Positions 3,483 through 39,026 of a DNA stretch of 64,000 bases are shown piece after piece. This DNA comes from Clostridiales bacterium (GTDB lineage: Bacteria > Bacillota > Dehalobacteriia > UBA4068): positions 824,213 through 888,212 of the forward strand of contig JAXGOI010000001.1 of assembly GCA_040767605.1 (NCBI GenBank), read 5' to 3'. Positions within the stretch are counted from its first letter, which is position 1. Every line of letters starts with the position of its first letter. Below the pieces are notes generated by a model. It was not told the DNA's origin, did no database searches, and saw only the letters and a program-made list of their open reading frames with translations. The position numbers were made by a program, and so were the translations under genes.

Positions 3483-4912
<1,430 letters not shown>

Positions 4913-4947
4913 AAATAGGGGTGTGGTTTTTCTGGTTTAAATAAACC

Positions 4948-5042
4948 TGGCGGAGAGCAAGGGATTCGAACCCTCGATACAGGTTTTTGCCCGTATACTC
5001 GCTTAGCAGGCGAGCGCCTTCGACCGACTCGGCCAACTCTCC
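4948..5042 (-). tRNA. tRNA-Ser(GCT)
   Basis: GGAGAGTTGGCCGAGT...ctGCTaa, long variable arm, GTTCGAATC, GCCA end. Confidence 0.97.
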
Positions 5043-5050
5043 ATAACATT

Positions 5051-5140
5051 TGGCGGAGGGGGTGGGATTCGAACCCACGGAACCCTTTGAGGCTCAACGG
5101 TTTTCAAGACCGCCTCCTTAAACCGCTCAGACACCCCTCC
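5051..5140 (-). tRNA. tRNA-Ser(TGA)
   Basis: GGAGGGGTGTCTGAGCGG...ctTGAaa, long variable arm, GTTCGAATCC, GCCA end. Confidence 0.97.
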
Positions 5141-32550: not shown

Positions 32551-32582
32551 ATGCGACAAAAACAATTGTTTAAGGCATTATT

Positions 32583-32690
32583 ATCTTCTTTCATCCAGAC
32601 TTTACTGTCGGCTTCGGAGTTACACCGAATCATACCTTGCGGCTCGTGGGCTATACCACCGGTAGGGATTTTCACCCTGCCCTGAAGATT
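32583..32690 (-). ncRNA. FMN riboswitch (RFN element)
   Basis: TCTTCAGGGCAGGGTGAAAATCCCTACCGGTGGT...AGCCCACGAGC...CCGACAGTAAAGTCTGGATGAAAGAAGA upstream of ribD. Confidence 0.97.
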
Positions 32691-32861
32691 TTATATTTAA
32701 TTACTTAATTAATATAACATATTGCTGTTTTTTTAGCAAGCCAAATACTTAAAAACTGCTTTTTTAGCGCTTAATAGCGATATACAGATTGAAGGCCTTC
32801 TTATTATATGGTATATTTTATATATTATATTTGCCTTAATATTGCGATATTTTAAGGGACG

Positions 32862-35139: not shown

Positions 35140-36057
35140 TTAAGTTAAATTATTAAGATCATAAGGGGTTTCCTGATAAACATAATAATTAAGCCAATTG
35201 TTAAACAAGAGCATTTCATGGCTGCGCCAGGATAAAACCGGCGGGTTTTCAGGATTATTTTGAGGGAAATAATTCTCCGGCACCCGGGGGTTAAGGCCCT
35301 TTTTAAAATCCCTGGCATATTCTTCAGCCAAAGTATTTCTATCATATTCCCCATGGCCGGTGGCAAAAAACTGCCGCCCGTTTTTATTGGCTATTATATA
35401 GGCCCCGGCCTCTTTTGAGGCGGCCAGTATTTCCAATTCCGGCACTTTTTTAAGCTCTCTTTCATTAAAATGGCTGTATCTGGAATGGGGCGCGTAAAAA
35501 ATATCATCAAAGCCCCTTAATAAGTGGTGGCGGGGTTTTAAATTCTCATGCAAATAAACTCCTGAAAGCTTTTGGCAAAGCTCATATTTCTCTAAACCAT
35601 AATGATAATAAAGCCCAGCTAAAGCCCCCCAGCAAATATGAAAAACAGAATAAACATTCTTTTTACTCCATTTGAAAATTCGGCAAAGCTCCGGCCAATA
35701 ATCAACCTCTTCAAAAGAAAGACGCTCCACCGGGGCCCCGGTAATAATCATACCGTCATACCTTTTTTCTTTTACCGTCTCAAAATCCGTATAAAAATTT
35801 TCCAGGTATTTGGCCGGGGTATTTTTAGAAATATGGCTTTTTACCTGTAAAAGCTCAATTTCTATTTGGAGGGGGGAATTACTTAATAAGCGTAAAAGCT
35901 GAACCTCCGTTACGGGTTTTTTAGGCATCAGGTTTAAAATTAAAATTTTTAAAGGCCGAATATCCTGATGCTCGGCTCTCTCCTGCCCCATTACAAATAT
36001 ATTTTCTTTTAAAAGCTCCTCCGCCGCGGGAAGGCCGTTGGGTATTTTTACCGGCAT
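35140..36057 (-). CDS. metA: MetA-family homoserine O-acyltransferase, probably an acetyltransferase
   Basis: LNLMP, ITGAPVE (Glu at the acyl-specificity position), ICWG, PHSR. Confidence 0.93.
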
Positions 36058-36084: not shown

Positions 36085-37380
36085 TTAAGCTTTAAAGGCT
36101 TTCTTTAAGGCCTGATTTAAATCGTCGATTAAATCCCCCGCATCCTCAAGGCCTATGGAAAGGCGGATAGTCTCCGGTCCGCAGCCCGCTTTTAACTGCT
36201 CTTTTAGGCTAAGCTGCTGATGGGTTGTGCTGGCAGGGTGAATAACCAGAGATTTTGTATCCGCCACATTGGCTAAAAGGGAGAAAATCTCCAAAGAATC
36301 AATAAATTTTTTGGCCTTATTAATATCTCCGCCCTTTAAACTAAAGCTGAAAATAGACCCGGCCCCTTTTGGGAAATATTTTTTTGCCAGGGAATAATAT
36401 TTGCTCCCTTTAATAGAGGGGTAATTAATTGAAGATACATAAGGGCTTCCTGAAAGGAATTCTATGATTTTTTCGGTATTTTCCACATGTTTTTTAACCC
36501 GGAGGGAAAGGGTTTCCAGCCCCTGAATAAATAAAAAAGCGTTTAAAGGCGCAAGAGCCGCCCCGGTATCTCTTAAAAGCTGCGCCCTGATTTTAGTAAC
36601 AAAAGCCGCCGGGCCAAAATCCTGATAATATTTAATCCCGTGATAGCTTTGATCCGGCTGATTAAAACCGGGGAAGCGCTTGCTTTTTTCCCAATTAAAT
36701 TTACCCCCTTCTACTATTACCCCGCCTATAGAGGAACCGTGGCCGCCGATAAATTTTGTGGCGGAGTGAACAACAATATCCGCCCCATGTTTTAAGGGCT
36801 GAAAAAGATAAGGTGTGGCAAAGGTATTATCCACTATTAAGGGCAAATCATTTTCATTGGCGATTTCGGCCACAGCCTGTATATCCACAATATTAATGCC
36901 GGGATTACCCAGGGATTCAAAAAATATGGCCTTGGTTTTTTCATTTATGGCTTTGCGGAAATTTTCCGGATTGTCGGCATTTACAAAATTAGTTTTTATG
37001 CCGAACTTTGGCAGGGTTGAGGCAAATAAATTATAGGTGCCGCCGTATAATGTGGCGGCAGAAATTATTTCATCCCCGGCCTGGGCAATATTTAAAATGG
37101 CATAATTAATAGCAGCCGAGCCGGAAGCTACGGCAAGCCCGGCGGAACCCCCCTCCAGAGCCGCCACCCTTCTCTCAAAAACCTCATTTGTAGGGTTACC
37201 CAGGCGGGTATAAATATTCCCTTGGGTCTTTAAGGCAAATAAATCTTCCGCATGCCGGGAGTTCTTAAAAACATAGGATGCTGTTTGATATATAGGGACG
37301 GCACAAGCCCCAGTTGACGGGTCCGGGAATTGCCCGGCATGAACCTGTAAGGTATCAAAACCCAATTCTTTTTTTATCAT
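36085..37380 (-). CDS. metY: O-acetylhomoserine sulfhydrylase
   Basis: [20 protein letters not shown] (PLP Lys), [11 protein letters not shown]. Confidence 0.93.
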
Positions 37381-37407
37381 TTATAATCAACCTTTCTCTT
37401 TTAAAAT

Positions 37408-37435
37408 AAAAAAACGGCCATCAACCGGCCGCTTT
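37408..37435 (-). terminator. Attenuator-type terminator upstream of metY
   Basis: Minus strand GCGGCC-ggttgat-GGCCGT followed by a T-run, ending just before the metY RBS. Confidence 0.7.
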
Positions 37436-37489
37436 AAAAATTCAACAATATGCTTAATTAAGCATTGATATAAGCTAAGGCAGATGTTT

Positions 37490-37582
37490 TCAGCACATTA
37501 AAATAGACCTGCTCATCCGGCACATCAGCATATCGGCAAAATATTGGTTTTTTCTCTTTTGATTTTGCGTTTTAAAAGTCAT
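37490..37582 (-). CDS. Putative Met/Cys-rich leader peptide MTFKTQNQKRKNQYFADMLMCRMSRSILMC
   Basis: Translated by hand; AAAGGTGA RBS; 4 Met + 2 Cys in the last 13 codons; lies between the promoter and the terminator of metY-metA. Confidence 0.7.
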   Translation of the reverse strand: MTFKTQNQKRKNQYFADMLMCRMSRSILMC

Positions 37583-37628
37583 AAATCTTCACCTTTTTCA
37601 AAATTCCTATATAACTGCTATGCTTTAT

Positions 37629-37657
37629 AGGATACAATATAAAGCCCCTAAAGTCAA
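37629..37657 (-). promoter_or_regulatory. SigA promoter of leader-metY-metA
   Basis: TTGACT-N17-TATCCT. Confidence 0.65.
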
Positions 37658-37772
37658 GGCTTTTGTTTTATAATTTGCGGCTCCTTAAATTTTACCCCTA
37701 AAACAGGCTAAATATCCCCAAAAAAATAGAGCCCGCTTTTAATCGGCGGGCTTTTTTATGCTCTTTTGGGCT

Positions 37773-39026
37773 TTAGCTGATATTAGGGACTAATTCCCCA
37801 TGCCTGAATGTATTGGCCTCAAAGAAGGGGTCGCCCTCCGCCATTTGTGTTGAAGTCCATCCATATACCCCGGGAATTAAACCGGAAAACTCAACAACAT
37901 AATTTTCCGGAACATCTTCCGTTGCAAAATCCAAAGCGGCCTGAGAGGGAACAGAAACAGCGCCTGTTGTATAAATTTGAGTTTTTGTTGTTGGAGTAAG
38001 AGAATACACAGCTGCGCTTACCGTTACCGCCGCTGATGTATTATTAAATACCTTTATAACCAGCCTATTGGCATCAGTTGTGGCAAACACCGGCCCTGTT
38101 GTTTTATTGCTGCTTTGGGCATTGGATAATATCTGGTCAACCTCAGTTTTAATTTCCTCAAGACCAAAGTCTGAACTTAAAACAGCGCTTTCAATAGCGT
38201 TTACCTCAGTTTTAATTTCCTCAAGGCCAAAATCCGAACTTAAAACGGCACTTTCAATAGCGTTTACTTCAGTTTTAATTTCCTCCAGTCCAAAATCCGG
38301 GCTTAAAACAGCATTCTCAATAGCGTTAACTTCAGTTTTAATTTCCTCCAGTCCAAAATCCGAACTTAAAACGGCATTCTCAATAGCGTTTACTTCGGTT
38401 TTAATTTCCTCTAAACCGAATTCAGAACTTAAAACGGCACTTTCAATAGCGTTTACTTCCGTCTTGATTTCCTCCAGGCCGAATTCAGAACTTAAAACAG
38501 CGCTTTCAATAGCGCCTACTTCCGTTTTAATTTCACTAAGACCAAAATCCGAACTTAAAACGGCGCTTTCAATAGCGCCTACTTCCGTTTTAATTTCACT
38601 AAGACCAAAATTCGGGCTTAAAACGGCATTCTCAATAGCGCTTACTTCGGTTTTAATTTCCTCCAGGCCGAATTCAGAACTTAAAACAGCGCTTTCCGTA
38701 GTATTTATTTCCGACATAATTTTCCTAAGGCCGTAATCCGGCCTATGGAGCAGCCTTTCTATCTTCTCCGTATTCTTAAGTATAGCTCTTTGCCCTTGCC
38801 CGGCTACGGGGCAAGGGCAGTGAGGCGCCGTATTTGGCCGGGAATTTGTATTCCCTCTCCGGAATCTTATTGGGCCGTAAACCTGATTAAATAAATCCTC
38901 CGGCATGCAGGCGCCGGAGCCTCTTAAAATACCGGTATCATCATCCCCTTGCAGGTCGGTAAAATCTTCCTCATGATCAAAAAGCTCGCCATTAAAATCA
39001 GGCGTAGTTTTATCCTTATGTTTCAT
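37773..39026 (-). CDS. Uncharacterised 21-aa-repeat coiled-coil protein, probably spore-surface associated
   Basis: 9 copies of AVLSSxFGLEEIKTEVxAIEx; no signal peptide; SigK-like promoter upstream. Confidence 0.75.
   Translation of the reverse strand: MKHKDKTTPDFNGELFDHEEDFTDLQGDDDTGILRGSGACMPEDLFNQVYGPIRFRRGNTNSRPNTAPHCPCPVAGQGQRAILKNTEKIERLLHRPDYGLRKIMSEINTTESAVLSSEFGLEEIKTEVSAIENAVLSPNFGLSEIKTEVGAIESAVLSSDFGLSEIKTEVGAIESAVLSSEFGLEEIKTEVNAIESAVLSSEFGLEEIKTEVNAIENAVLSSDFGLEEIKTEVNAIENAVLSPDFGLEEIKTEVNAIESAVLSSDFGLEEIKTEVNAIESAVLSSDFGLEEIKTEVDQILSNAQSSNKTTGPVFATTDANRLVIKVFNNTSAAVTVSAAVYSLTPTTKTQIYTTGAVSVPSQAALDFATEDVPENYVVEFSGLIPGVYGWTSTQMAEGDPFFEANTFRHGELVPNIS
38124..38690 (-). repeat. 63-bp coding tandem repeat x9
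   Basis: Period of 63 bp seen directly (e.g. 38161 vs 38224). Confidence 0.92.

Follow-up and report, generated by a model that had tools for sequence, protein, structure and literature searches.

In Gram-positive bacteria, methionine genes are by textbook account controlled by riboswitches (the S-box) or T-boxes, and in enterobacteria by repressors. In the trp leader, a classical case of attenuation by a translating ribosome, the regulatory codons lie in region 1 and the stop codon falls between regions 1 and 2. Several described systems come closer to the case considered here. Naville and Gautheret 2010 (PMC2965389) proposed by comparative genomics that hisS/hisZ paralogues of bacilli are preceded by a histidine leader peptide, which, in the passages of that paper dealing with it, replaces a T-box, is presented as the first 'regular' one in Firmicutes and is argued to have originated repeatedly and independently. 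In mycobacteria, leaderless short open reading frames (ORFs) encoding polycysteine sense cysteine supply by ribosome stalling and control sulfur amino-acid genes, according to the parts of the experimental report bioRxiv 10.1101/834739 that describe them. For Actinobacteria, the relevant sections of Seliverstov et al. 2005 (PMC1262725) predict from comparative genomics that cys or cbs operons are preceded by short ORFs in which several Cys codons follow one another close to the stop; no terminator hairpins were found, Rho dependence is proposed, and the authors state that they saw no RNA element before methionine operons. Here we describe the leader of the metY-metA operon in a 64,000-nucleotide (nt) stretch, hereafter the window, of the genome of a Clostridiales bacterium (GCA_040767605.1, contig JAXGOI010000001.1, positions 824,213 to 888,212 of the forward strand). 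The genome, G000, has 1.86 Mb, and the metY leader occupies its positions 861593-861872. We propose that this leader is probably a ribosome-mediated (leader-peptide) transcription attenuator of metY-metA that senses the charging of methionine (Met)- and cysteine (Cys)-tRNA.

The enrichment of Met and Cys codons in the short ORF of this leader exceeds chance. Codon counting confirmed what a preliminary description of this DNA had reported for the ORF at 37582-37490, namely 4 Met and 2 Cys in its last 13 codons. With the codon usage of long ORFs of the genome (Met 2.2%, Cys 1.3%), the binomial probability of at least 6 Met plus Cys among 13 codons is ~2.6e-6. Among all 33,761 short ORFs of the genome (10-70 codons, first start, both strands), 42 contain at least 5 such codons in 13 and only 4, the leader ORF being one of them, at least 6. 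When nested starts were allowed, 101 ORFs on both strands reached 5 in 13, and the leader ORF is the only one of these that combines a Shine-Dalgarno-like site with a hairpin and T-run within 200 nt. All 5 ATG triplets within the leader ORF lie in its frame. When the genome was searched for leader ORFs rich in other amino acids, no convincing His, Trp, Leu or Thr attenuator emerged. A 9-codon ORF at G000 821019-821048 (+), ~3 kb before the window, contains 3 His codons and has a Shine-Dalgarno-like site and a downstream hairpin with T-run.

The whole leader fits into the 277 bases that, on the minus strand, separate the terminator of the upstream gene from metY. Its parts and the genes that follow are, in window coordinates:

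37728..37754, minus strand: bidirectional terminator hairpin closing the upstream gene (37773-39026), identified as a terminator-like site and in the sequence
37629..37657, minus strand: sigma-70-like promoter with a 17-nt spacer, -35 at 37657-37652 and -10 at 37634-37629, 9/12 matches
37589..37594, minus strand: Shine-Dalgarno-like hexamer six bases before the leader ATG, read from the sequence
37490..37582, minus strand: leader ORF, 30 codons plus stop, from the ORF search and codon counts
37514..37531, minus strand: proposed stall site and first regulatory codon cluster, made up of codons 18-23 (Met, Leu, Met, Cys, Arg, Met), inside the 5' strand of hairpin P1
37493..37498, minus strand: codons 29-30 (Met, Cys), adjoining the stop codon, from codon reading
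37467..37534, minus strand: hairpin P1, -18.3 kcal/mol, z -1.77, with codons 17-25 as its 5' strand (region 1) and 37485-37467, past the stop, as its 3' strand (region 2)
37472..37485, minus strand: candidate antiterminator strand, which may pair with the terminator 5' arm at 37434-37424; weak, not above chance
37450..37465, minus strand: small palindromic hairpin P2, -4.8 kcal/mol, z -1.0, not significant
37405..37435, minus strand: intrinsic terminator, 10-pair stem and 5-nt loop at 37435-37411, U-run to ~37405, -13.5 kcal/mol
36085..37380, minus strand: metY, O-acetylhomoserine sulfhydrylase (homocysteine synthase), 431 codons, the first regulated gene; 635.9 bits with TIGR01326 (cut-off 495.1)
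35140..36057, minus strand: metA, homoserine O-acetyltransferase, following metY as the operon's second gene; 473.6 bits with NF047918, the model for acetyl-type MetA (cut-off 460.5)

The promoter, ribosome-binding site, 30-residue ORF, hairpin, terminator and metY ribosome-binding site that the preliminary description had placed on the minus strand are all present at their coordinates. The hairpin at 37728..37754 sets the leader apart as its own transcription unit, in which the ORF starts ~40 nt past the promoter-like site, behind a hexamer that we take to be complementary to the 3' end of 16S rRNA. Terminator-like sites are enriched in the surrounding 1-kb region (6 found versus 1.7 expected). 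The intrinsic terminator ends 30 nt short of the metY ATG at 37380, an interval that holds the metY ribosome-binding site. Since this leaves no space for a promoter between terminator and gene, read-through into metY must be either conditional or leaky. The gene directly upstream (37773-39026, minus strand) encodes a protein of 417 residues in which a ~22-residue repeat occurs about eleven times in tandem; NCBIfam gave this protein no match above cut-off and weak coiled-coil-type matches only.

The same design precedes metY-like genes elsewhere. The class to which the window belongs comprises 73 species genomes, 38 of which have a metY-like match at E <=1e-100; these amount to 44 places, all of which were taken, and 80 metY loci from a genome collection and another 80 from metagenomes were added. 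After dropping 10 of 167 loci for a short upstream region or identical sequence, the counted set was 157 non-identical loci with at least 300 nt upstream. Met/Cys-rich upstream ORFs, for which the preliminary description had advised comparing metY leaders of relatives, recur with a terminator behind them in orthologous leaders. ORFs with at least 5 Met plus Cys in 13 codons were found on the sense strand at 12 of 157 loci, versus 1 of 157 on the antisense strand of the same regions and 11 of 3140 shuffles. At a density of at least 6 in 13 codons, the sense count was 7 of the 157 loci, and both antisense strand and shuffles yielded none. Such a dense sense ORF lies before the metY-like gene in 9 of the 38 genomes of the window's class that have one, at a distance of 91-212 nt. 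Further Met/Cys ORFs were seen in an Acidobacteriaceae genome (locus L071), on a metagenome contig (L140) and, more weakly, in a Saccharofermentans genome (L084). The terminator finder called a terminator 9-54 nt past the stop codon in 11 of 15 candidate leaders, and at L009 and L023 a terminator is visible in the sequence though it was not called. Promoter-like pairs scoring 9-12 of 12 end 6-74 nt before the ORF in 14 of the 15. Outside the L007-L009 subfamily the encoded peptides are unrelated to one another, and across the analogous ORFs the common features are Met/Cys content and position; the recurrence is one of analogous design, not of nucleotide homology. Two Met/Cys-rich ORFs lacking a terminator (L065 and L222) were judged doubtful, and L222 is still included among the 12 counted.

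Other arrangements were also evident in these upstream regions. Where the Met/Cys ORF lies ~210 nt upstream of metY, as at L010 and L026, the stretch from the first terminator to metY contains another short ORF, which carries an Arg-Met(-Cys) motif; L221 shows similar spacing. The loci with the closest MetY proteins (69-72% identity; L031, L034, L038, L110-L114, L118, L145 and others) have no Met/Cys ORF; at these, a conserved gene, of which just the C-terminal 34-51 residues are seen, ends 60-110 nt before metY.

These data bear on a reading in which the ORF is a matter of chance, or encodes a small protein with a function of its own, and promoter, ORF and terminator make up an independent unit that merely precedes metY. 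The promoter-like site and terminator of the leader would suit such a unit, as would a peptide matching no NCBIfam model and a Met/Cys density that four ORFs of the genome share. However, with no room for a promoter in the last 30 nt, metY needs read-through from this very unit; no other Met/Cys-dense ORF of the genome combines a ribosome-binding site with a terminator, as the leader ORF does; and what the analogous ORFs conserve is Met/Cys content and position, not peptide sequence. We regard this reading as improbable.

We then consider the known RNA elements. As the preliminary description had noted, neither a SAM-I riboswitch nor a T-box occupies the leader, where no Rfam family reached its gathering score and no SAM-class (S-adenosylmethionine, SAM) or T-box model appeared with thresholds relaxed to E = 10. 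SAM-I (RF00162) has no match at gathering score in the window and none across the 1.86-Mb genome, and none of the six genomic matches to the T-box (RF00230) is at the metY leader. Rfam matches in the window are limited to a flavin mononucleotide (FMN) riboswitch at 32579-32693 (-), with 113.6 bits, and three tRNA genes at 4839-5140 (-). The enterobacterial leader models of Rfam gave no match on the minus-strand leader; their weak plus-strand matches sit on the terminator of the upstream gene, off the leader. As a positive control, SAM-I was detected directly before metY at 10 of 20 loci outside the window's class. Eighteen of the 20 bear Bacillota-type names in their records; the remaining pair, L071 and L084, have Met/Cys leaders and no SAM-I. 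Within the window's own class, SAM-I precedes metY at 0 of 40 loci. At the distant metY locus L099, an FMN riboswitch lies just downstream of metY.

Three hairpins (P1, P2 and the terminator) make up the fold of the 131-nt segment that runs from codon 16 through the terminator; its z-score is -2.64, better than 199 of 200 shuffles. Three successive hairpins of this kind, at a position where many other Bacillota carry SAM-I, might also be expected of an undescribed metabolite riboswitch responding to SAM, methionine or homocysteine, with the ORF incidental. Riboswitch aptamers are normally conserved over such distances, yet the leader shares no nucleotide conservation with any of the 73 class genomes and resembles no SAM or T-box family even at E = 10. 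Moreover, what metY leaders conserve is in-frame codon content, not sequence or fold, and a riboswitch of this sort thus appears very improbable.

In a leader-peptide attenuator, transcription would begin ~40 nt before the 30-codon ORF, which would be translated as RNA polymerase advances. While Met-tRNA and Cys-tRNA are well charged, the ribosome would clear codons 18-23 and reach the stop codon; P1 and the terminator at 37435-37411 would both form, and most transcripts would end 30 nt before metY. Upon poor charging, the ribosome would stall on the Met/Cys cluster and cover the 5' strand of P1, and the downstream strand thereby freed would disturb the 5' arm of the terminator, letting the polymerase read into metY-metA. 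The codon content of the ORF suggests that the charging of both tRNAs may be sensed jointly.

Analogous leaders behave in predictions much as this scheme would have it. Leaders were folded up to the 3' arm of the terminator with a ribosome footprint masked at each Met/Cys codon, and the partner of the 5' arm was scored. Of the 11 leaders in which the finder called a terminator, 7 (L007, L008, L012, L071, L084, L140 and L199) have a 5' arm whose predicted best partner is a segment of the ORF lying 10-25 nt 3' of the codon cluster. With the ribosome on early cluster codons this pairing is worth 8 to 21 kcal/mol, and in most of the seven it is lost or much weakened once the ribosome moves on or reaches the stop. 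The predicted pairing at L071, for instance, amounts to -16 to -18 kcal/mol while the ribosome occupies Met 8-12, to -1 when it occupies Cys 17-19 and to -6.4 once it has reached the stop; at L007 and L140 it is about equally strong at the stop codon and during the stall. A pairing that depends in this way on ribosome position is, in these models, the behaviour expected of a leader-peptide attenuator. The codon cluster is separated from the terminator 5' arm by ~65-117 nt in the analogous leaders and by 79-96 nt, within that range, in the window leader. Equilibrium folds with a masked ribosome were tried as a test as well and proved non-discriminating, the terminator being kept in 8 of 11 leaders folded.

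In the window leader itself, shortened folds with the ribosome on codon 18 join region 2 (37485-37472) to 37434-37424; a 1x1 loop and a 3-nt bulge break up the 10 pairs of this duplex. The antiterminator step that this pairing could provide is one we infer by analogy, and a number of results weigh against the attenuator as a whole. Of 2000 shuffles, 236 pair as well as region 2 does with the terminator 5' arm (-8.8 kcal/mol), as do 863 of 2000 random genomic 26-mers; for the alternative partner of this arm, the end of the ORF (37504-37483 against 37441-37421, -7.6 kcal/mol), the number is 217 of 2000 shuffles. Pairing of the 5' arm gains just 1.3-3.2 kcal/mol in shortened window folds, and with the ribosome masked on any Met/Cys codon the equilibrium fold retains 90-100% of the terminator pairs. 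The P1 duplex (-16.2 kcal/mol) is itself borderline, being matched in strength by 97 shuffles and 303 random genomic 26-mers out of 2000 each, and the fold of the whole 250-nt leader is unremarkable (z -1.24, 23 of 200 shuffles as good). Promoter-like sites are no commoner than chance in the 1-kb region (2 versus 2.3 +/- 1.4 in shuffles). As to recurrence, no such ORF exists at 145 of the 157 metY-like loci, among them the ones whose MetY is closest, and L007, L008 and L009 belong to one subfamily, so that locus counts overstate independence. The leader DNA finds no homologue in the 73 class genomes, just matches of 17-50 nt at E 6.9e-4 or worse, and two large collections, of genomes and of metagenomes, contain no MetY above 72% identity. 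With no close relative of the window leader, covariation analysis is impossible.

Within the L007-L009 subfamily, differences at codon positions 1, 2 and 3 number 19, 22 and 27, which is no clear translation signature, and 11 codon changes are synonymous versus 34 non-synonymous; the core is conserved at the nucleotide level, which accounts for the lack of a signature. Metagenome contigs of four runs covering 36900-37800, with patchy coverage, show no variant within the leader.

The folding that the preliminary description had called for in search of an antiterminator thus turned up candidate pairings in the window leader that are weak and at chance level. Its claim of classical attenuation stands as far as the ORF, the terminator, the recurrence and the absence of a riboswitch go, and falls short at the antiterminator, whose pairings do no better than shuffles. 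Of the findings that it had named as fatal to the idea, the two open to computation, a riboswitch hit over the region and a failure of the Met/Cys-rich ORF to recur in orthologous leaders, did not materialize. The shortfall at the antiterminator is what one would anticipate if ORF and terminator were real but formed no classical switch, metY being set at a low basal level by a constitutively leaky terminator or controlled at its promoter by a DNA-binding factor, with the ORF adding little. Control at the promoter finds further backing in the DNA around the -35 element, which in the window leader falls within an imperfect inverted repeat (37663-37641) and in 6 of the 15 candidate leaders (L007, L008, L009, L010, L065 and L222) is enclosed by a 17-nt palindrome with 5-nt arms. 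In addition, an 11-mer around the leader -35 is common to the -35 of the cysK promoter (G000 132725) and has just two copies in the genome; two copies in 3.7 Mb, counting both strands, are nonetheless near the chance expectation. A leaky terminator or promoter control would leave two observations unexplained: unrelated sequences before metY repeatedly contain a Met/Cys-dense ORF equipped with a ribosome-binding site, and ribosome position governs the predicted antiterminators of 7 of the 11 analogous leaders whose terminator was called. On balance we hold an explanation of this type to be rather unlikely. The palindromes over the -35 in those six leaders also suggest a DNA-binding regulator acting besides the leader ORF, and the 11-mer of the metY-leader and cysK promoters may be a shared operator of a sulfur regulator, or chance.

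A leader peptide could act in another way, as a metabolite-dependent arrest peptide with which the ribosome senses free Met or SAM instead of tRNA charging. TnaC, for tryptophan, and the MTO1 region of plant CGS1, for SAM, are precedents. A Cys-Arg-Met core, written with different synonymous codons, is present both in the leader ORF and in the otherwise dissimilar L007-L009 ORFs, as an arrest motif might be. However, a three-residue match is weak, the leaders at L012, L199 and L010 do without this core, and base pairing may be what preserves its G+C-rich arginine codons. An arrest triggered by plentiful Met or SAM would also have the wrong sign unless the logic of the structures were inverted, and we consider such a sensor highly unlikely. 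A bolder scenario would have Met/Cys leader peptides replacing SAM riboswitches at metY across a whole Bacillota class and arising repeatedly in other phyla, with the Cys-Arg-Met core acting within the nascent peptide so that, in the manner of TnaC or CGS1, the ribosome itself would register the status of sulfur amino acids or of SAM; taken as a whole, it strikes us as decidedly improbable.

The preferred reading thus remains an attenuator that responds to the charging of Met- and Cys-tRNA. As for other sulfur genes, the genome has one cysK above the family cut-off and a second cysK-like gene, no match to a B12-independent methionine synthase, and MetH solely as separate domain-sized matches. 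No Met/Cys leader ORF was found upstream of cysK, the second cysK-like gene or the three MetH-domain genes.

If correct, a trp-style Met/Cys leader peptide would supply classical attenuation with an amino-acid specificity that it has lacked, and a whole lineage without SAM-I at metY would sense sulfur amino acids through the ribosome. The behaviour of a Met-codon sensor is not obvious, and poses a puzzle, as methionine starvation also limits translation initiation and the supply of SAM. Short ORFs of this kind, at present unannotated, should be annotated as regulatory leaders, and the device could serve as a Met/Cys-responsive genetic switch.

Full-text searches of the literature, with subscription journals and supplementary files outside their scope, found no methionine or Met/Cys leader peptide before metY, and the described systems differ from the present one in definite ways. 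The histidine leader of PMC2965389 concerns another amino acid and other genes, and the passages of that paper on leader peptides mention none for methionine or cysteine. The mycobacterial ORFs, as portrayed in the corresponding parts of 10.1101/834739, are leaderless, carry their Cys codons back to back and regulate translation through Shine-Dalgarno sequestration with no terminator, whereas the window leader has a 5' untranslated region of ~40 nt, a Shine-Dalgarno-like site, a majority of Met codons, 2 non-adjacent Cys codons and a canonical terminator. An intrinsic terminator likewise distinguishes it from the actinobacterial cysteine leaders as PMC1262725 presents them in the sections cited. 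The SAM-I (S-box) riboswitch RF00162 shares with it the site, the metY 5' leader, and the output, premature termination, in many other Bacillota; SAM-I, however, senses SAM directly via an RNA aptamer, and the window leader has no SAM-I match.

The closest likeness is with the enterobacterial trp, his, leu, thr, pheA and ilv leaders (RF00513, RF00512, RF00506, RF01859 and others), where a short ORF likewise lies in the 5' leader of a biosynthetic operon and an intrinsic terminator likewise precedes the first gene. In topology the window leader matches the trp leader, with the regulatory codons inside region 1 and the stop codon separating that region from region 2. It departs from the enterobacterial attenuators in its apparent Met plus Cys specificity, its Bacillota host and an antiterminator that is a weak candidate. 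The features of the trp/his type that it has are an ORF with a predicted ribosome-binding site in the leader, a cluster of end-product codons, an intrinsic terminator and the same device in orthologous leaders. On the most likely reading, Met and Cys are a new amino-acid specificity, and this lineage a new host group, for a known kind of mechanism.

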